Shown: positions 1 through 22,697 of the stretch, in pieces
Layout: each line of letters begins with the position of its first letter
Numbering within the stretch: the stretch's first letter is position 1
Assembly (NCBI GenBank): GCA_037924335.1
Contig: JAXSMZ010000013.1
Coordinates: 1 to 37,203, forward strand
Source of the DNA: Aquificaceae bacterium
GTDB lineage: Bacteria > Aquificota > Aquificia > Aquificales > Aquificaceae
Length of the DNA: 37,203 nt
Direction of reading: 5' to 3'
Notes under the pieces: generated by a model
Database searches by the model: none
What the model was told of the DNA's origin: nothing
The model's input: the letters and a program-made list of their open reading frames with translations, nothing else
Made by a program: the position numbers and the translations under genes

Positions 1-659
1 ATTGGAAGCTGTGTTCTAACATAGAGGTTTTAAAGAAAGATGGCAAGTGGTATTTAAAACTTGTCTTTGAGAAAGAGGTCAAGTTAGAGAGAAAAAAGCC
101 AAAGGGCATAGATATAGGATACAGGAAGCTAATCGCTACCTCAGAGGGGGAGGTATTTGGCAAGGATGTAAGGGAGATAATAGATAAGAGGATAGAACCC
201 CAAAAGCAAGGTTCAAGAAGGTGGAAAAGGGCGAAGCACTATTTAAAGACAGAGATAAACAGGATACTCAAGGGAGTAATAGATGGCAGTTTTTCTCCTG
301 TGCTTGAAGGATTAAAGAATTTGAAGAAGGGAAAGAGAAAAGTCTGGAGTAGGGCGGTAAACAGGAGATTTAACCACTGGTTGTATGGGTATGTTATAAA
401 GAGGATAAGGGAGCTATGTGAGGTCGCTGGCGTCCAGCATTACATAGTTCCTTCTGCTTACACAAGCAGGACTTGTCCTGAGTGTGGATATCAGGACAGG
501 ATGAACCGCAAAGGGGAACATTTCAAGTGCCTACGGTGTGGATATGAAGGAGATGCGGACATAGTAGGTGCGAGGAATGTTCTTATGCGGTTCACAAGGG
601 AGCTTATAGTCTCCTTGCCTGCGAAACCTCATTCTGTGGAATATTTTTCTATGGGATGA
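1..659 (+). CDS. tnpB: TnpB RNA-guided endonuclease (IS200/IS605/IS607 superfamily), 5' end outside window
   Basis: Frame of ORF 300..659 is open back to base 3: RuvC-I GIDIG, RuvC-II VLEGL, zinc finger CPEC...CLRC, RuvC-III DADIVGARNV. Confidence 0.9.
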   Translation, partial: WKLCSNIEVLKKDGKWYLKLVFEKEVKLERKKPKGIDIGYRKLIATSEGEVFGKDVREIIDKRIEPQKQGSRRWKRAKHYLKTEINRILKGVIDGSFSPVLEGLKNLKKGKRKVWSRAVNRRFNHWLYGYVIKRIRELCEVAGVQHYIVPSAYTSRTCPECGYQDRMNRKGEHFKCLRCGYEGDADIVGARNVLMRFTRELIVSLPAKPHSVEYFSMG

Positions 660-667
660 GGAACTAT
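595..667 (+). ncRNA. Putative 3' part of omegaRNA scaffold / element right end overlapping the tnpB tail
   Basis: Hairpin 595-617 (CAAGGGAG/CTCCTTG), 15-bp hairpin 627-661 with four G-U pairs, loop ATAGT (606-610) complementary to ACTAT (663-667). Confidence 0.55.
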
Positions 668-712
668 TCGGTCTTTCTTAGGATATATTTTACTCTTAGA
701 GGAGGTAAGAGG

Positions 713-16011: not shown

Positions 16012-17388
16012 TTATAAAAGGACTAGGTCATCATCCTCCAAATACTCTCCAACCCTCACTTCTATGACTTCTGCTGGAATAAAGCCCCTGTTTTGAATGT
16101 AATATGGAGTTGCCTTGTGTACATAACCGCTGTCTCCCACGCTTATGAAACCCTCCTTTCCATTGGACTTAAGGAGAAGTGTCCCACCCAGAACCATCCA
16201 TGTCCTAGTACTGTGCATATGCATCTGTGGACCTATATCTTTGTTGGGGTAAATGGTTATCCTGTATATCTTGTAAGATGGTCCTTTATCAAGCAAGAGT
16301 CTTTTCCCCCATCTTTCGTGAATTTCTACATGATGCTTTGCTTCTTCTCTGCCCATGCCTTTGAGCATGTTGACAAGGTCTCTGACCTTTGAAGACATGT
16401 CCTTCTTAATAACCAGTATGGCGTCCCTTTCCTCAACAACGGCTATATCTTTGACTCCTATAAGACCTATGAGTCTTCCTGTACTGTAAGCTAACGTGTT
16501 CTCTGAATCTATGCATAGAACGTCTCCTATATGCGCGTTACTGCTCTTGTCATCCTTATTTGGTAATATCCTGTATAAACCGTCAAAGGAACCAACATCG
16601 CTCCAGAGTATATCCATGGGGATAACCGCTCCCTTTTTTGTTTTCTCCATTTCAACATAGTCAAAGGCTATCTCTGGAAGCTCTCTGTAGTTTTTTAGAG
16701 TGTAGTTAAAACCCTTTTGTGCAAAGCTTCCTATCTCTGGAGAATGCTCAACAAGCTCTCTTAGCCCAGTTTCTATAGTAAAGACAAAATTGCCCGAGTT
16801 CCAAAAGTATCCTCCATCCTTGAAAAAAAGCTCTGCTAAGCTAATATCTGGTTTTTCAACAAACTCAGCCATACGGTACGCACGAAAGCCACCATCTTCT
16901 ATCAAGCCCTCCCCTATCTTTATGTAGCCAAAGTTGGTATTGGGCTCCCAAGGTTTTATGCCAAAGGCAACCACGTATCCCTCTTTTGATATGTCCCCAC
17001 CAAACCGCAGGTAGTTTACATACTTCTCAACAGGTTCTATGTAATGGTCCGATGGGATGACAAAGAATACCTCGTCCTCCTTTGAGGAAAGCCTCTCGAG
17101 AGCATAAAGCATACCCAAAGCTACAGTGGGACCTGTATTTTTTCTCTCCGGTTCAAGGATCACAGAGTAGCCATCGTAAGGATAAAGGTCGTTCCTGACA
17201 TGATACTCGTATTCTTCTGACGTTGCTATGATGATATCCTCCGGTTCTAAAAGGTTTAACAGCCTTTCAAAAGTTAACCTAAGAAGAGATTTTTGACCAA
17301 AGACTTTGAGAAACTGCTTTGGATACTTTTCTCTTGACAGTGGCCAAAGCCGTGTGCCGCTTCCACCGGCCATTATAAGAGCCTTCAT
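16012..17388 (-). CDS. manC: Mannose-1-phosphate guanylyltransferase with C-terminal cupin (PMI-type) domain
   Basis: AGGSGTRLWPLSR..PKQFL, FVEKPD, WNSG, WSDVGS. Confidence 0.9.
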   Translation of the reverse strand: MKALIMAGGSGTRLWPLSREKYPKQFLKVFGQKSLLRLTFERLLNLLEPEDIIIATSEEYEYHVRNDLYPYDGYSVILEPERKNTGPTVALGMLYALERLSSKEDEVFFVIPSDHYIEPVEKYVNYLRFGGDISKEGYVVAFGIKPWEPNTNFGYIKIGEGLIEDGGFRAYRMAEFVEKPDISLAELFFKDGGYFWNSGNFVFTIETGLRELVEHSPEIGSFAQKGFNYTLKNYRELPEIAFDYVEMEKTKKGAVIPMDILWSDVGSFDGLYRILPNKDDKSSNAHIGDVLCIDSENTLAYSTGRLIGLIGVKDIAVVEERDAILVIKKDMSSKVRDLVNMLKGMGREEAKHHVEIHERWGKRLLLDKGPSYKIYRITIYPNKDIGPQMHMHSTRTWMVLGGTLLLKSNGKEGFISVGDSGYVHKATPYYIQNRGFIPAEVIEVRVGEYLEDDDLVLL

Positions 17389-17518
17389 GCATATTATTAT
17401 AAGTGGCTTTGATGATTATCTATTATCAATTAATGCCAAGCTCTTTACAAACTTTTTACTGTAAGAATACTTATCAGTACTCCTACCCCAAATAAAAATA
17501 TAGTTTATTTTCGTCAAT

Positions 17519-17593
17519 TTTCAATCCTTGCTCCTGCAGGCTCATAGCCTCTCAACTTCCTGGGTAGCATTATGTGACTTTTGAAGTTACCCC
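17519..17593. repeat. 75-bp direct repeat, copy 1 (orphan duplicate of arsA 3' coding sequence)
   Basis: 74/75 identical to 21545..21619; single difference 17535 T vs 21561 C. Confidence 0.95.
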
Positions 17594-17638
17594 TTATGTC
17601 GCTTCCTGTCATGTTTGGTAATAATTTTTACAAAAAAT

Positions 17639-17654
17639 TGTAAAAAACAAAACA
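17639..17654. promoter_or_regulatory. NifA-type upstream activator sequence
   Basis: TGT-AAAAAACAAA-ACA; near-consensus GGT-N10-ACA at 17617-17632. Confidence 0.55.
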
Positions 17655-17673
17655 AAAAGCTCGTTGTCTTACA

Positions 17674-17689
17674 TGGCATGGATTTTGCA
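17674..17689 (+). promoter_or_regulatory. Sigma54 -24/-12 promoter
   Basis: TGGCATGGATTTTGCA, exact GG-N10-GC spacing, upstream of SD and ATG 17722. Confidence 0.85.
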
Positions 17690-17721
17690 CCTATCAAATT
17701 AAAACCCTAAAGGAGGTATAC

Positions 17722-18036
17722 ATGTGTACGTCAAAAGTTGTTTTTAAAAACAGTTGTATAGGAGCTTGTGAGGAAGGAGCAGACGTGAATGCCCAAAGGA
17801 CTGTGTGTCACACAGAGGAGGAAAAATACAGAAGTTTGAGCCTTGAGGAGCTCAAGGATGAAGTCAAGAAGCTCAAGATGATGGCAATAAACACAGCCAC
17901 AAAACTCCATGACCTGGCTGAGGAAGGGCTACCTGGAAAATGGGAAGAAATACCCCAAGTGGCGGAGGAAGCTTATAGAGTTCATAGGTCTTACTACACG
18001 GCCAAGAGGGTACTTGAAGAGAGAATTAAGTCATAG
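17722..18036 (+). CDS. CCE_0567 / Rop-like nif-associated protein
   Basis: LEELKDEVKKL...LHDLAEEGLPGKWEEIPQVAEEAY; AGGAGG SD. Confidence 0.78.
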   Translation: MCTSKVVFKNSCIGACEEGADVNAQRTVCHTEEEKYRSLSLEELKDEVKKLKMMAINTATKLHDLAEEGLPGKWEEIPQVAEEAYRVHRSYYTAKRVLEERIKS

Positions 18037-18059
18037 GTCTCTCATGTGTAAATTGGTCC

Positions 18060-18260
18060 TTATCTTTTGAACAGGTATGCCTCCTGGTCCTCTATTACCA
18101 CGTAGACCTTTTCTCCTGTCTTTAAACCCAAATCATCCACCATGCTCCTTGGTATAACCATCCTGACCTCTATGTTCTTAAACTTAACGGCTATATCTGA
18201 AAAAAACTCGCCAACATCAAGCTCGGTTATTATTCCCCTGAAGATGGCCTGTTTCTTCAT
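18060..18260 (-). CDS. Single TOBE/Mop-like domain protein
   Basis: FRGIITEL...DLGLKTGEKVYVVI pattern; last gene of nif operon. Confidence 0.65.
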   Translation of the reverse strand: MKKQAIFRGIITELDVGEFFSDIAVKFKNIEVRMVIPRSMVDDLGLKTGEKVYVVIEDQEAYLFKR

Positions 18261-18486
18261 TCAAAGCCTCCAGTTCATGTTCAAGGCACCCTACAAATAT
18301 GTTCAGTCTTGGAAAATACACAGTGTAAATTGTCTTTGTAAGCAAGAATGTGCCTATGTCCATAACTATACCTTCCTCCCCTTTATCCAAAAGGACTGCA
18401 TCCCAAGAGAGACCAGGAAAAGTTCCATCGTTCTTTATCTTCTTACGAGTTCTAACTGCATCGCCTACGTTAAACTTCCTCTCCAT
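18217..18486 (-). CDS. nifZ: Nitrogen fixation protein NifZ
   Basis: KIKNDGTFPG...GEEGIVMDIGTFL...YTVYF...VGCLEHEL. Confidence 0.9.
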   Translation of the reverse strand: MERKFNVGDAVRTRKKIKNDGTFPGLSWDAVLLDKGEEGIVMDIGTFLLTKTIYTVYFPRLNIFVGCLEHELEALNEETGHLQGNNNRA

Positions 18487-18488
18487 GG

Positions 18489-18803
18489 TTATCTTTTCTT
18501 AATTTCTAAATTCACTAAAAATGACCTGACGGCCTCCTTATGAACTTTGAACAATCGCCTTTCTATAGGGTTCGATGTGAGAAAATCCTGATAAGCTCTT
18601 TTTAGACATTCCCTAAGCTTATCGTATAAGCTTTCATCCTCTGCGCTCTCAGTGGTTCTAAGTGCTTCCTCCATGTACATGCTAAACATCTTAAGTATAT
18701 GTAGCCTGTAAGGCTTTACTATCCTTTCATCGTACTCTATGCCAAAGTACTTAAAGAAATCCTCTGCATCCTTCAAGTTTTTTAAGTCATTTAACACATT
18801 CAT
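18489..18803 (-). CDS. nifW: Nitrogenase-stabilising protein NifW
   Basis: LKDAEDFFKYFGIEYD...RLHILKMF...AYQDF...LFKVH. Confidence 0.9.
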   Translation of the reverse strand: MNVLNDLKNLKDAEDFFKYFGIEYDERIVKPYRLHILKMFSMYMEEALRTTESAEDESLYDKLRECLKRAYQDFLTSNPIERRLFKVHKEAVRSFLVNLEIKKR

Positions 18804-19011
18804 AACCCGTTCCCTCCAATCTAACTATGCATCCGTCTATGGGACATATAGCAACACATTGAGGTTCTTCATAAAATCCTTCGCACTCTGTACATAACCT
18901 TGGATCTATCTCAAACATACTCTCCTCATCATGGCTTATGGCCTTTGTAGGACATTCTTTCTCGCAAGCATAACACGATATACAATCTTCCTGCCTTATG
19001 AACATTGCCAT
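18787..19011 (-). CDS. fdxN: 2[4Fe-4S] ferredoxin, nifB-associated
   Basis: CISCYACEKECP and CTECEGFYEEPQCVAICP directly after nifB. Confidence 0.88.
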   Translation of the reverse strand: MAMFIRQEDCISCYACEKECPTKAISHDEESMFEIDPRLCTECEGFYEEPQCVAICPIDGCIVRLEGTGYECVK

Positions 19012-19012
19012 A

Positions 19013-20422
19013 TCAGACCTCTACTGTCTCATTCTTCAATACATACTTCTCATAGTATTTGACCAAAGCTTCCTCTATTGGAAGGTAAGCAAACTCGTCC
19101 ACACATTGGATTCCCCTCGGTTCCAGAACATCTCTTGGCTCAAAACCTATCTTGGCAGCGAGGACAGCTTTGCAGTCAGAAAGCTTAGAGATAATCTCCT
19201 CTAGCACCTCTCCTCCCTCAATGCAGGAGATGGACCCATGGCAGTAAGGCGTGACTTTTCTGTGATGTATAAACTTACACCCCTTTGAGGATACTTCATA
19301 TATGAGAAACTCATGAGCTGTACCAAAATGCTCGTTTACAAGCATATTACCTTTGCTGGCAACTGCAACAAGTACACTTATACCTTTATCTTCTCGAAGA
19401 GGAACAGATAGCAGTTCTCTCGCTTTTCTTAGCTTTTCCCTCTCCTTCTCTATCTCCTCGTGTATGGACTTTCTGAATTCTGGATTATAGTTTATCTCAA
19501 GTTTAGCTATCTTATCCTTGGTAAATTCCTGCCCCCGATCCTCACCCAAAAGCCCCACTGCATCAGCCCTACATTGCCTACAATGTCTCATCAAAGACAT
19601 ATGCCCCTCACACTTTTCTTGAACTTCTTTGAGCTGGCTTGGTGTTGGTGGTTTTATACCCATGCGTTGGTAAGCTGTTCCATCGCCTTCCACATAAGGC
19701 ATAATGTTATGGAGGAACGCACCCATACCTCTAACCTTCCTTGACAGTTCTTCCATCTCTTCCCCGTTTACTTCTGGTATAAAGACAGTGTTTACCTTAA
19801 CAAGTATGCCATTCTCTACACAAGCCTTTAGACCCTCATACTGTTTCTCGAGGAGTATCTTAGAAGCTTCAAGTCCTTTGTACCTTCTGTGGTTAAAAAA
19901 CACCCACGGATAGATCTTTGAAGCTACCTGTGGACTTATTGCATTTATTGTTATTGTAACATGGTCTACGTCTAACTCTTTTATCTTTTCAATGTACTCA
20001 GTGAGCTTTAACCCGTTGGTAGAGAGGCAAAGTTTTATATCAGGTGCTTTTTCCTTTATGAGCTCAAAGGTTCTAAAGGTACGCTCGGGGTTTGCCAGGG
20101 GGTCTCCTGGGCCTGCTATTCCAACAACAGTCATCCGAGGAATCTCCATAGCAACAGCCAGCACTTTCTTTGCAGCCTCCTCCGGAGTTAGAAGTTCACT
20201 AACAACTCCAGGCCTTGATTCGTTGGCGCAGTCGTACTTCCTGTTGCAGTAATTGCACTGTATATTGCAAGCTGGAGCCACAGCTACATGCATCCTGGCA
20301 TAAAAGTGGTGCGCTTCTTGGGAATAGCAAGGATGATCATGTATCTTTTCCTTTATATGGTCGGGAAGAGGGGAAAGCTCATCCGTCCCAACTCCGCATT
20401 TTTTGGCATTGCATCCACTCAT
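19013..20422 (-). CDS. nifB: Nitrogenase cofactor biosynthesis protein NifB (radical SAM + NifX-like domain)
   Basis: HPC, CNIQCNYC, ESRP, AGPG, TITIN, CRQCRADAVG, VNEHFG. Confidence 0.97.
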   Translation of the reverse strand: MSGCNAKKCGVGTDELSPLPDHIKEKIHDHPCYSQEAHHFYARMHVAVAPACNIQCNYCNRKYDCANESRPGVVSELLTPEEAAKKVLAVAMEIPRMTVVGIAGPGDPLANPERTFRTFELIKEKAPDIKLCLSTNGLKLTEYIEKIKELDVDHVTITINAISPQVASKIYPWVFFNHRRYKGLEASKILLEKQYEGLKACVENGILVKVNTVFIPEVNGEEMEELSRKVRGMGAFLHNIMPYVEGDGTAYQRMGIKPPTPSQLKEVQEKCEGHMSLMRHCRQCRADAVGLLGEDRGQEFTKDKIAKLEINYNPEFRKSIHEEIEKEREKLRKARELLSVPLREDKGISVLVAVASKGNMLVNEHFGTAHEFLIYEVSSKGCKFIHHRKVTPYCHGSISCIEGGEVLEEIISKLSDCKAVLAAKIGFEPRDVLEPRGIQCVDEFAYLPIEEALVKYYEKYVLKNETVEV

Positions 20423-20434
20423 GGTAATACCTCC

Positions 20435-20644
20435 TTACTCGCCAATTTTTTTAACCTCTATGGTTATAGGGAACCTTGGCTCTGATTCAAAAGATGGCAC
20501 TTGCAAAACCCACCCATTTGATAGCTTAAAAGTACCACCCCAGGAACCACTCTTCTGTATATCCACAACGATGGCTTCTATGTCTTTTTTAGGTATATAA
20601 ACCTCAATATGACCATTTGAGTTCTTTCTGAAGGTGGCCTTCAT
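20435..20644 (-). CDS. nifT: NifT/FixU protein
   Basis: YIPKKDIE...WGGTFKLSNGW...PITIE. Confidence 0.9.
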   Translation of the reverse strand: MKATFRKNSNGHIEVYIPKKDIEAIVVDIQKSGSWGGTFKLSNGWVLQVPSFESEPRFPITIEVKKIGE

Positions 20645-20648
20645 GATA

Positions 20649-21074
20649 TCAACCTCCTGTAAGAGCCTCTTCTCCCCTTTCCCCCGTCCTAACCGTTATG
20701 GCATCTTCAACAGGGAGAACAAAGATCTTTCCATCCCCATAATGACCTGTTCTGTTGACCTCAATGATAGCCTCTATGGCTTTTTCAACCTTGTCATCTG
20801 GAAGAACCATAACCAATAACTTCTTTGGAACGTAAACCACAGGCTTTGTTATAGTTGCTCCTTCCGCTACCAAGTAGGATGGGGTTGGTACTAACTTTGG
20901 TGCGCTTGTAGCATAAAGGGCAAGCTCACTTTCTGCATCTGACATGATAAAACCTCTCTGTTTACCCCTCCCCCATACAGAATGTATGCTCATGGCACCA
21001 CAACCTACTTTATCAAGAGCTCTCTTTGTCTCAGTATACTTTTCCCTCCGAATTATAGCCCATATCTCCTTCAT
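20649..21074 (-). CDS. nifI2: P-II family nitrogenase regulator NifI2
   Basis: MKEIWAIIR, TKRAL, GRGKQRG, long T-loop, TGHYGDGKIFVLPV. Confidence 0.85.
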   Translation of the reverse strand: MKEIWAIIRREKYTETKRALDKVGCGAMSIHSVWGRGKQRGFIMSDAESELALYATSAPKLVPTPSYLVAEGATITKPVVYVPKKLLVMVLPDDKVEKAIEAIIEVNRTGHYGDGKIFVLPVEDAITVRTGERGEEALTGG

Positions 21075-21394
21075 AGCTCCACCTCCCCAGTCCTGATGGT
21101 TATGCTCTTTTCTACGGGACTTACAAAGACCTTCCCGTCTCCTATGTTCCCAGTCCTTGCATGTTCCAATATGATGCTTTCAACCTTACTTAAGTCTTCA
21201 TCCTTTACAACCATAAGCAACAGAACCTTCGGGAGTTCTTCGTAAACTATATCTCCCACCCTCAATCCTTTCTGTTTACCTCTTCCCATTGCCGACATCT
21301 TCGTTAACGCTGGGAAGCCAGAACCTTCAAGAGCTAGCACAACTTCTTGTTCTTTTTCAGGCCTTATAAATGCTCTTACAAGCTTCATTTCCAT
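21071..21394 (-). CDS. nifI1: P-II family nitrogenase regulator NifI1
   Basis: IRPEK, GFPALTK, GRGKQKGLRVGDIVYEELPK, GDGKVFVSPV. Confidence 0.88.
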   Translation of the reverse strand: MEMKLVRAFIRPEKEQEVVLALEGSGFPALTKMSAMGRGKQKGLRVGDIVYEELPKVLLLMVVKDEDLSKVESIILEHARTGNIGDGKVFVSPVEKSITIRTGEVEL

Positions 21395-21413
21395 AACCTC
21401 CTGCTTTTCTTAT

Positions 21414-21429
21414 TGCAAAGAAGATGCCA
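21414..21429 (-). promoter_or_regulatory. Sigma54 -24/-12 promoter of the nifI1..TOBE operon
   Basis: Minus strand TGGCATCTTCTTTGCA, GG-N10-GC. Confidence 0.85.
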
Positions 21430-21458
21430 GCCTACGGCTCTAGGTTTTTGACGAAAAG

Positions 21459-21474
21459 TGTAATAAACATTACA
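21459..21474. promoter_or_regulatory. NifA-type upstream activator sequence
   Basis: TGTAAT-AAAC-ATTACA, palindromic TGT-N10-ACA. Confidence 0.7.
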
Positions 21475-21497
21475 AAATGGAATGTTTTGTAACAAAG

Positions 21498-22697
21498 TTA
21501 TGTGCTGTTAGTTCCCTTTACAAGCTTCACAAAGAGATGTCCGCTTTCAATCCTTGCTCCCGCAGGCTCATAGCCTCTCAACTTCCTGGGTAGCATTATG
21601 TGACTTTTGAAGTTACCCCACCTTATTATGAGCTCTCCCTCCGACTTTAAAAGGGATAACCCCTCCTTTGTTAAGAAGGGTGCCCTCAGTTTTACTATGT
21701 AATCGCTCCCTTCTTGCAAAAACTCATAGGGTTTTTCTTTAAAGAACACATGGGATGGGTCCTTATCGGCGTATATTAGGTCTGCGAGTATACTGAGTCT
21801 TTCCTCTCCTACAACTTCATCCTCAAGCATGGGAACTCTATAAACTGGAACGGGTGCAAAGAGAGCCTCCATTTCTTCAAGGTGTCTTTTTTGGGTCAGG
21901 ACCCACTTGGAAAAGTGTTCACAGTTTTCCACAATGGGAGGAAGAACCTTGTTAACTATCACTGCATCCACGTTTGCACCGAACAGGTTAAAGTACATAA
22001 AAGCTCTCTGGCTCTCCTTTAAAACCATCTTCTCCGGATTTGCCACAAGTCTTACAGAGGTTACCTCAGGGTTTATGATTATCTCATCTACACCTCTTAG
22101 CTTTTCATAAAAGTTTTCTAAGGCTTGGAAGTAAGAGTCATCTGGGAGGGGAACATCCGTGAGCCTTCTTGCCACTGGTCTTGCTACTCTCAGTATGTTT
22201 CTCTCCACGTTGAATATCTTTTTCATGTACCACTTTAGGACTGTGGGCATGGATACAAACCTCAGTGATTCGCCAGTTGGAGGAAGGTCAAGAAGCAGCA
22301 CATCAAACTCCCCTTCCTTGTAGTACTTGTTAACATAAAGGAGGCTTGTAACTTCTTCCATGCCTGGGAGTATGGCAAGCTCTTCAGAGACAACCTCATC
22401 AAGGCCAGTAGTACTAAAAAGTATCTCTAAGAATCTGTAAACATCATCCCAATACCTATCCACTTCCTCTTGTATATCTATCTCCTGGATGTAAAGCTTT
22501 TCGTTTATCTTTATAGGAAGGCCTTTTGCTTTCATCTTTTGGCCTTCTGGTATATCAAAGGCATCTCCCAAGCTGTGAGCAGGGTCTAAAGAGACAACTA
22601 TGGTCTTGTAGCCAAGCTGGGAAAGTCTGTACCCAGTGGCAGCCGATATGGTTGTCTTTCCAACACCACCTTTCCCTGAAAAGAGCAAGACACGCAT
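21498..22697 (-). CDS. arsA: ArsA/GET3-family ATPase with C-terminal HSP20-like domain
   Basis: GKGGVGKTT, SLDPAHSL, LPGMEE, DLPPTGE; single ATPase domain; arsenite function not implied. Confidence 0.88.
   Translation of the reverse strand: MRVLLFSGKGGVGKTTISAATGYRLSQLGYKTIVVSLDPAHSLGDAFDIPEGQKMKAKGLPIKINEKLYIQEIDIQEEVDRYWDDVYRFLEILFSTTGLDEVVSEELAILPGMEEVTSLLYVNKYYKEGEFDVLLLDLPPTGESLRFVSMPTVLKWYMKKIFNVERNILRVARPVARRLTDVPLPDDSYFQALENFYEKLRGVDEIIINPEVTSVRLVANPEKMVLKESQRAFMYFNLFGANVDAVIVNKVLPPIVENCEHFSKWVLTQKRHLEEMEALFAPVPVYRVPMLEDEVVGEERLSILADLIYADKDPSHVFFKEKPYEFLQEGSDYIVKLRAPFLTKEGLSLLKSEGELIIRWGNFKSHIMLPRKLRGYEPAGARIESGHLFVKLVKGTNST
21545..21619. repeat. 75-bp direct repeat, copy 2 (inside arsA)
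   Basis: Matches 17519..17593; encodes GNFKSHIMLPRKLRGYEPAGARIE. Confidence 0.95.

Follow-up and report, generated by a model that had tools for sequence, protein, structure and literature searches.

The wzy locus of Salmonella Typhimurium is a block of a few kilobases without a recombinase gene that is flanked by 113-bp attL/attR-like direct repeats, through which it is excised as a circle in about 1/500 cells (PMC12074656). The same source quotes 23–27 and 44–90 bp as minimal lengths for RecA recombination. The nif island of Pseudomonas stutzeri occupies a fixed site, cobS-gshP, with short flanking repeats that vary among strains and with neither integrase nor transposase (PMC4174501). [quoted passage not shown] Here we analysed a locus of a hot-spring Aquificaceae bacterium, a family assignment that its named homologues bear out, in which nine open reading frames (ORFs), among them the nifB gene, lie between two copies of a 75-bp direct repeat that matches part of the adjoining arsA gene. 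The window is the whole 37,203-nucleotide (nt) contig JAXSMZ010000013.1 (C13) of assembly GCA_037924335.1 (genome G000; 1.53 Mb in 39 contigs). We found no description of a repeat-flanked nifB block in Aquificaceae in the freely accessible main-text literature. Sequence comparison with relatives indicates that the block sat beside arsA before the near-perfect repeat arose.

The two copies are identical at 74 of 75 positions, start 4026 bp apart and share a longest perfect stretch of 58 bp. Their sole mismatch, 17535 T versus 21561 C, corresponds to GCA versus GCG, both alanine codons in the arsA frame. Repeat comparison confirmed this geometry, including the synonymous nature of the change, as it had been described in a sequence-only reading of the window, and profile and motif searches bore out that nine nif-related genes and both sigma54-type motifs are enclosed, with no integrase or transposase family match among the nine ORFs. 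The repeat had also been called the 3' end of arsA; it does lie within arsA near that end, but the right copy stops 47 nt before the arsA stop codon (21498), and the left copy read in the arsA frame ends in ARIEN-stop. No third copy of the 75-mer was found in the assembly (match E value 2e-30), and the other direct-repeat families of the window are at most 35 nt long and of far lower likeness. Throughout G000, nine direct repeats lie within single contigs (at least 40 bp, 90% identity, spacing up to 20 kb), seven of them with a single partner; of three others that were inspected, one is the common start of tandem paralogues, one lies both within a gene and at a contig end, and one flanks two ORFs. 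The features at issue are listed below, where X8 is a sequencing run with a closely related contig, G006 is a sister species and L089 is a metagenome locus with a contiguous nif cluster.

17519..17593, minus strand: left (distal) copy, a non-coding duplicate of arsA near its 3' end, from repeat comparison; missing in X8 and G006
21545..21619, minus strand: right copy, within the arsA reading frame, from repeat comparison
17457..17518, no strand: 62-nt block outside the left copy, with other letters in X8, from comparison with the assembly, fetched loci and X8
17594..17600, no strand: 7-nt spacer between the left copy and the block's ancestral flank, with seven other letters in X8, from the X8 and L089 alignments
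17598..21516, no strand: nif accessory block, bounds from homology to the contiguous nif cluster of L089 (89.5% identical)
21498..22697, minus strand: arsA-family (GET3/ArsA) ATPase with an HSP20-like C-terminal domain, 399 residues, profile matches
16012..17388, minus strand: manC (mannose-1-phosphate guanylyltransferase/isomerase), next gene on the distal side in X8 as in the window, profile matches

The stretch occurs in eight public runs under three study codes, with no RNA run listed among them; six of the eight were examined as Logan contigs (k=31). X1, X2 and X4, from two study codes, each yielded all four repeat junctions: pieces for the left copy, for the block (17564–21591) and for arsA (from 21590) around a 58-bp node into which the copies had collapsed. 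X1 is possibly the run from which the window derives. The collapsed node was about twice as deep as its flanks in X2 (35.5 versus 20.7–22.9) and X4 (18.4 versus 7.8–9.1); in X1 it showed no doubling and a local dip (6.9 versus 8.3–9.9). The repeat is genuine and no misassembly, a question that the sequence-only reading had raised. The fragmentation of the genome into 39 contigs and a polymorphic insertion sequence (IS) 52 bp from the left copy might have favoured a mis-join in assembly, but with junction contigs of both copies and the collapsed node in three runs, and one base by which the copies differ, the chance of such an artefact is next to negligible. The ratio of block depth to mean flank depth was ~0.98 in X1, ~0.95 in X2, ~1.0 in X4 and ~1.2 in X3; by contig depth, a coarse measure, there was no gross loss or gain of the block in these runs.

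Comparison with X8 and G006 separated the age of the block at arsA from that of the repeat. X8, a run from the third study, contains a single 9729-bp contig (depth 66, ~96% identical to the window) that matches 16600–17456 with 40 differences, continues with 58 other letters and then matches 17601–22400 with 192 differences. It carries manC, the block and arsA in the window's order and lacks the 75-bp copy, and its ArsA of 399 residues has the same tail as that of the window. In G006 (~85% identical), the block and arsA are colinear with the window from 17610 onward, the coding arsA copy is the only one, and the distal neighbour differs from the window's. Since the block lies at arsA in both X8 and G006 without the repeat, the comparison indicates that the 75-bp repeat is no scar that the block left when it arrived. 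The recent integration scar proposed in the sequence-only reading did not survive these results: these genes occupy this position in X8 with no repeat beside them, G006 has the arsA junction in common with the window and likewise lacks the repeat, and no allele with an empty site turned up in the genomes and runs examined, which is largely the pattern expected if that proposal were wrong. The duplication remnant offered as its alternative comes close to the reading favoured here, in which a patch or a duplication is likely. In G006, a short inverted-repeat element has ends both at the distal edge of the block and at a point upstream of manC (L034:3360-3400 and L035:10795-10955), and could explain why manC no longer lies beside the block there.

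The link between block and arsA is older than the split of G000 and G006, across which the synonymous divergence (dS) of arsA is 0.555, while the copies of the repeat are 99% identical. With one difference per ~90 free sites (75 non-coding and 15 synonymous), the age of the repeat is estimated at ~4% of that split (Poisson range 0.1–22%), and about six differences would be expected, as a rough estimate, if it were older than the split from X8. Gene conversion could make the repeat look younger than its real age. At the four bases before 17601, L089 is matched by X8 at 4/4 and by the window at 2/4, weakly suggesting that the window has the derived state.

X8 also appears to retain the trace of an older event at the same gene. 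The alignment of L089 to the window spans 17598–21516 and places the block's proximal edge within the last codons of arsA, and the five-residue ArsA tail after KLVKG, encoded by the last five codons, matches the non-coding flank of the block in L089. The 58 letters peculiar to X8 can be divided into 33 + 18 + 7, and the 18-base piece aligns to the block's proximal edge.

21514..21531, minus strand: 18 nt of arsA at the proximal edge of the block; a piece aligned to these positions stands at the distal edge in X8 and is followed by an in-frame stop

On the minus strand, the letters after the 18-mer of X8 read as Phe and a stop codon in the arsA frame, giving a KLVKGF-stop end that lies 35 residues past the start of the NFKSH motif and within the range of 33–38 residues of 29 relatives. 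Random genomic 58-mers matched that 50-nt region equally well in 4 of 20000 draws. The 33 filler letters had no match in the genome or the loci, either as DNA or as peptide. The 18-base piece is likely the displaced original end of arsA and an older insertion scar, and because of this reading the ancestral site would be arsA-manC, as judged from one contig. The earlier suggestion that arsA served as a landing site accordingly seems sound for the older event, with the block edge in the last arsA codons and the 18-base duplicate in X8, and fails for the 75-bp repeat.

With moderate confidence, we read the nine genes as a piece of an old three-way split nif cluster and the left copy as a young patch of the cell's own arsA made by host recombination, presumably with neither a dedicated enzyme nor a selected role. 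In the proposed course, the block landed in the last codons of arsA before the split from G006, as the comparisons show, and thereby provided a new five-residue ArsA tail. At the far edge, this landing may have left behind 18 duplicated bases of arsA together with the original stop, now displaced, as kept in the one contig of X8. The 58-nt junction segment would then have been replaced by 144 nt (7 + 75 + 62), a change visible between the alleles, in cells that would have kept nifB throughout; the replacement could have occurred by illegitimate patching (SPDIR-like or through template switching, possibly seeded by the 18 bases) or by duplication and subsequent deletion. In the last step, as seen among the runs, an IS200/IS605-type element came to segregate 52 bp outside the left copy. 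The cell's own arsA is the source of the 75 nt, which start 14 nt past the 18-base stretch, and the new junction lies within 7 nt of that of X8, possibly because the patch was seeded by the old 18-base duplicate there. In this most likely reading, the locus would document, in three alleles, how a short self-copied repeat arises where an old insertion joined its host gene, and would warn that a near-perfect repeat beside a gene block is not necessarily as old as the block's arrival there.

Several results weigh against the young-patch reading. No source for the 62-nt block was found in the assembly, the fetched loci or the viral contigs, although the zero matches of the viral scan are not evidence of absence. 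Microhomology at the edges does not exceed chance: the inner score was reached by 153/600 random 30-mers, and the outer-edge score of 0 by 600/600 controls, with the ancestral letters only partly visible. The left copy lacks the 18-base seed stretch, so a second event is needed, and the sole difference being synonymous fits two once-coding alleles somewhat better. The evidence from X8 is one contig of one run; its 18-mer aligns to 21514–21531 at no less than 85%, and 18 duplicated non-coding bases dating from before the G006 split would be expected to have diverged further. Furthermore, the congener G004 seems to be without the whole block and has nifHDKEN, so block loss occurs, and a contig of run X7 displays a circle or tandem join. 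In this contig, 1054 bp long at a depth of 6.9, position 21561 runs back into 17536; the join was seen in one of the six runs. Depth in X7 is 2–7x, and among the pieces listed none covers 17470–17535 or 21620–21672. The join may be an artefact because a k=31 graph that loses those edges gives the same contig, leaving it an ambiguous hint. A loose end of X7 at 17457 had no match in the genome; as a candidate allele it was set aside and treated as another organism.

A circle could in principle arise at this locus. The 75-bp repeat, with its 58 perfect base pairs, is long enough for RecA recombination by the cited thresholds, and recA is present. RecA is predicted to loop out 4026 bp and to leave a product without nifB and with an ArsA of 385 instead of 399 residues, and such cells would be expected to stay rare. 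The geometry of a loop-out ending arsA in ARIEN-stop, put forward in the sequence-only reading, stands as a prediction, but the product would lose 14 ArsA residues including a conserved strand, in which two leucines are invariant in 27/27 relatives. Past the start of the NFKSH motif, ArsA tails are 33–38 residues long in all 29 parsed sequences (30 loci), and loop-out would give 24. The sole nifB of the genome would thus stand one recombination step from loss. We also searched for the empty site. Of 90 family genomes examined, 81 have arsA and 51 manC, and arsA lies within 10 kb of manC in 0/47 other genomes with both, many of them fragmented and with low synteny across the family. None of the six runs showed an empty-site allele, which k=31 contigs cannot show directly. 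A scan of metagenomes for the repeat pattern gave 0 matches, which is not evidence of absence.

Loss followed by regain is the main rival, an unlikely explanation that nevertheless deserves some weight. Here the lineage would have deleted the block, cutting arsA at ARIE and joining it to the 62-nt block and manC, and then reacquired it from a nif-carrying relative by transformation, either by a homology-anchored illegitimate join or by single crossover with a circularised piece of DNA; the 75 bp would be the recipient's arsA, remaining on the far side. The geometry equals that of single-crossover integration, and circularised fragments in Escherichia coli left target duplications of 109–950 bp (PMC3240628); X8 has the same geometry with a different, shorter duplicate. 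The synonymous difference, the presence of comEC, dprA and recA in G000, the patchy nifB (9/81 family genomes), nifHDKEN without the block in G004 and the passage of nif genes between genera in Aquificaceae all agree with this history, as does a weak likeness of the 62-nt block to an ArsA tail. Its first codons resemble that tail one base out of frame, scoring 12.2 against 21–23 for real tails; in this post hoc comparison, the value was reached by 57/3000 shuffles and, within the first seven offsets, by 13/3000. However, no empty site turned up in the 47 genomes or the six runs, among which the species itself is thinly sampled, the nearest ArsA cluster has three members with a representative of 399 residues, the intermediate would bear a cut ArsA, and the position of the new junction within 7 nt of that of X8 is left unexplained. 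If true, loss and regain would provide a small testable mechanism for patchy nitrogen fixation among hot-spring Aquificaceae. A broader version appears doubtful: that the 3' end of arsA works as a landing site used again and again, with the nifB block lost and regained in hot-spring Aquificaceae, separate re-insertions leaving scars of 18 bp in X8 and 75 bp here, the block leaving as a promoter-complete 4-kb circle (the X7 join) and the host gene, which is cut on exit, thereby locking it in. Were this the case, nitrogen fixation would be switched at the population level via a small cofactor module and not via the nitrogenase genes.

It is quite improbable that the repeat serves as a working reversible switch in the manner of wzy, with loop-out of the nifB block by RecA as a circle of 4026 bp at a measurable rate, its regain or amplification by the cells and a population-level tuning of nitrogen fixation as the outcome. 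The repeat length lies above or within the minimal lengths quoted for RecA (PMC12074656), the X7 contig joins 21561 to 17536, and both promoters are enclosed, so that the circle is predicted to be a complete expression unit. Yet the X7 signal is shallow, reproducible by lost graph edges and confined to one of six runs; excision cuts ArsA; block depth shows no gross change; and the repeat is missing in X8 and G006, in contrast to the wzy att repeats, reported in all 134 genomes examined (PMC12074656). More improbable still is a genomic island that an integrase, supplied in trans or later lost, placed at arsA by site-specific integration, with the repeats as attL and attR. Direct repeats at both ends, one within the 3' part of a gene, and the integrase-less anchored nif islands of P. 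stutzeri (PMC4174501) would fit such an origin; the block without repeats in X8 and G006, the failure of excision to restore arsA, the lack of a nearby integrase, the genome-like composition and the two other nif pieces without edge repeats do not. No integrase was found in or beside the element among the 42 ORFs of the window; elsewhere in G000, one XerC/D-like gene is present on C6, and no resolvase was matched. The block has a G+C fraction of 0.422 (genome, 0.424) and a tetranucleotide distance at the 68th percentile of 374 windows, showing that its composition is genome-like and not foreign. The genes comEC and dprA of the putative natural-competence machinery, like recA, scored above cut-off in G000.

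In contigs of X1, X2 and X3, loose ends at 17466–17469 belong to the IS near the left copy, a multi-copy IS200/IS605-type element that carries a tnpB remnant, and represent both of its ends.

17466..17470, minus strand: empty target GTAT, insertion point between 17467 and 17466; element inserted in X1, X2 and X3 contigs

The left end of the element follows GTATT in 17/17 copies and the right end terminates in TAT in 19/20, so the element inserts after GTAT without target duplication. The polymorphic insertion shows recent movement of this family. As a cause of the repeat, the element was rejected: its target lies within the 62-nt block, which is missing in X8, so it is likely a later arrival. 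No IS copies stand at the repeat edges in the window as a composite transposon would have them, the polymorphic IS lying outside the left copy only. At its start (window 300–670), the contig holds the 3' remnant of a tnpB gene along with a right end of this IS family. The left-copy junction on the minus strand (17497–17524) forms a sigma70-like site (TTGAAA, 16 nt, TATATT; 10/12) facing manC; six such sites were observed against 1.5 expected, and this one carries no weight in the reading.

The nif system of G000 was located across the genome. The genes nifH, nifD and nifE scored above cut-off on C1, together with nifK in two ORFs separated by a ribosome-binding site (C1:102697-104336), the first with a tail of ~40 extra residues. 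Decay was rejected as an explanation of the split nifK, given its own ribosome-binding site, the same split in 7/8 family genomes with nifK (81 searched) and its presence in print for a related genus, where it was noted and not studied (PMC12780486). The best match to nifA, on C3, scored 483 bits, short of the cut-off of 529; nifV-like and nifS-like genes adjoin it. By gene content, then, the system is split over three loci and not incomplete, with nifHDKEN (nifH, nifD, nifE and nifK on C1) and the nifA-like gene (C3) on contigs other than that of the block. Of the two possibilities left by the sequence-only reading, split or incomplete, only the former applies. G006 has the same three-way split. 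In G005, G015, G038 and L089, the block runs on without a break into other nif genes, and these alignments mark it as one of the three parts into which a formerly contiguous Aquificaceae nif cluster has been split. Edge repeats of at least 12–13 nt were found neither on the other two nif pieces, nor in G006, nor in L089.

L089:1-11785 versus G000 C1:97520-99320, C3:44652-50666 and window 17598-21516: nif cluster comparison

The flanks of L089 are 90% identical to genomes of genus g12 (G044/G065) and 69% to G000, while its nif genes are 89–93% identical to the three pieces of G000, closer than those of the sister species G006. In a nifB tree of 11 rows, L089 grouped with G000 and G006 at 100/100. 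Judging from these identities and the tree, nif genes crossed genera, in one direction or the other. A tRNA-His gene adjoins the block in L089. G004 has nifV-like, nifA-like and nifHDKEN genes in one uninterrupted series (L140:686-15966), and no nifB, nifT or block DNA was found in its 99%-complete, 60-contig assembly, possibly a natural loss of the whole block. Broken nifB genes were seen in two genomes: that of G005 (L064) seems broken in two frames near residues 356–396, with a NifX-like end in the second frame, and G069 has a broken second copy. Between the nifA-like and nifS-like genes of G000 (C3:46686-48965) lie an aldehyde ferredoxin oxidoreductase-like gene, a small ferredoxin and a presumably MoaD-like ORF, an arrangement also seen in G004, G005, G006, G015, G038 and L089.

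Inside the repeat, the Rop-like gene lies on the plus strand and the other eight ORFs on the minus strand.

17722..18036, plus strand: Rop-like protein, 104 residues, PF05082
18060..18260, minus strand: TOBE-like ORF of 66 residues, weak Pfam match under cut-off, kept in the blocks of relatives
18217..18486, minus strand: nifZ, PF04319
18489..18803, minus strand: nifW, PF03206
18787..19011, minus strand: 4Fe-4S dicluster ferredoxin, profile match
19013..20422, minus strand: nifB, sole copy above cut-off in the genome, TIGR01290, 604 bits
20435..20644, minus strand: nifT, TIGR02934
20649..21074, minus strand: P-II family regulator, second of the pair, profile match and homologues
21071..21394, minus strand: P-II family regulator, first of the pair, profile match
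17639..17689, plus strand: sigma54-type promoter motif (17674) for the Rop-like gene, with a TGT-N10-ACA site (17639), consensus match only, strict pattern
21415..21474, minus strand: sigma54-type motif (21429) and TGT-N10-ACA site (21459–21474) of the P-II to TOBE-like operon, consensus match only, loose pattern

The two sigma54-type motifs converge, each with its own TGT-N10-ACA site.

Set against the described systems, the locus has direct repeats at both ends but otherwise departs from an integrase-mobilised island: no integrase was found in or beside it, excision would not restore the target, no empty site was seen and the composition is native. It shares with the P. stutzeri island a fixed site and short, strain-variable flanking repeats without an integrase or transposase. 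That island comprises a whole nif set in the published description (PMC4174501), whereas the present block is one 3.9-kb piece of three, with genome-like composition and a repeat copied from the flanking gene. The described Aquificaceae clusters have the same gene set, with two NifI-like P-II genes and nifK in two ORFs (PMC12780486); the clusters are contiguous in G005, G015, G038 and L089 and lie at three loci in G000 and G006. As in SPDIR, a short stretch (58 nt) was replaced by ectopic patches, 75 nt from the cell's own arsA and 62 nt without a source, but the end microhomology did not exceed chance and the insert of 144 nt needs two patches. HFIR, single crossover and transformation-made duplications likewise resemble the locus in duplicating part of a target, with the differences that no recipient (empty) allele was found here and that HFIR, as described in PMC3240628, usually deletes and does not duplicate. 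The resemblance to wzy lies in direct repeats around a block of a few kilobases without a recombinase gene, from which host-recombination loop-out would give a circle and a single repeat. The wzy repeats are intergenic and serovar-wide, with excision, circle and reversion measured (PMC12074656); here one copy lies inside a gene that excision would cut, a 96%-identical strain is without the repeat and an empty site was not seen. By analogy, wzy would be the closest working counterpart of this locus, in geometry only.

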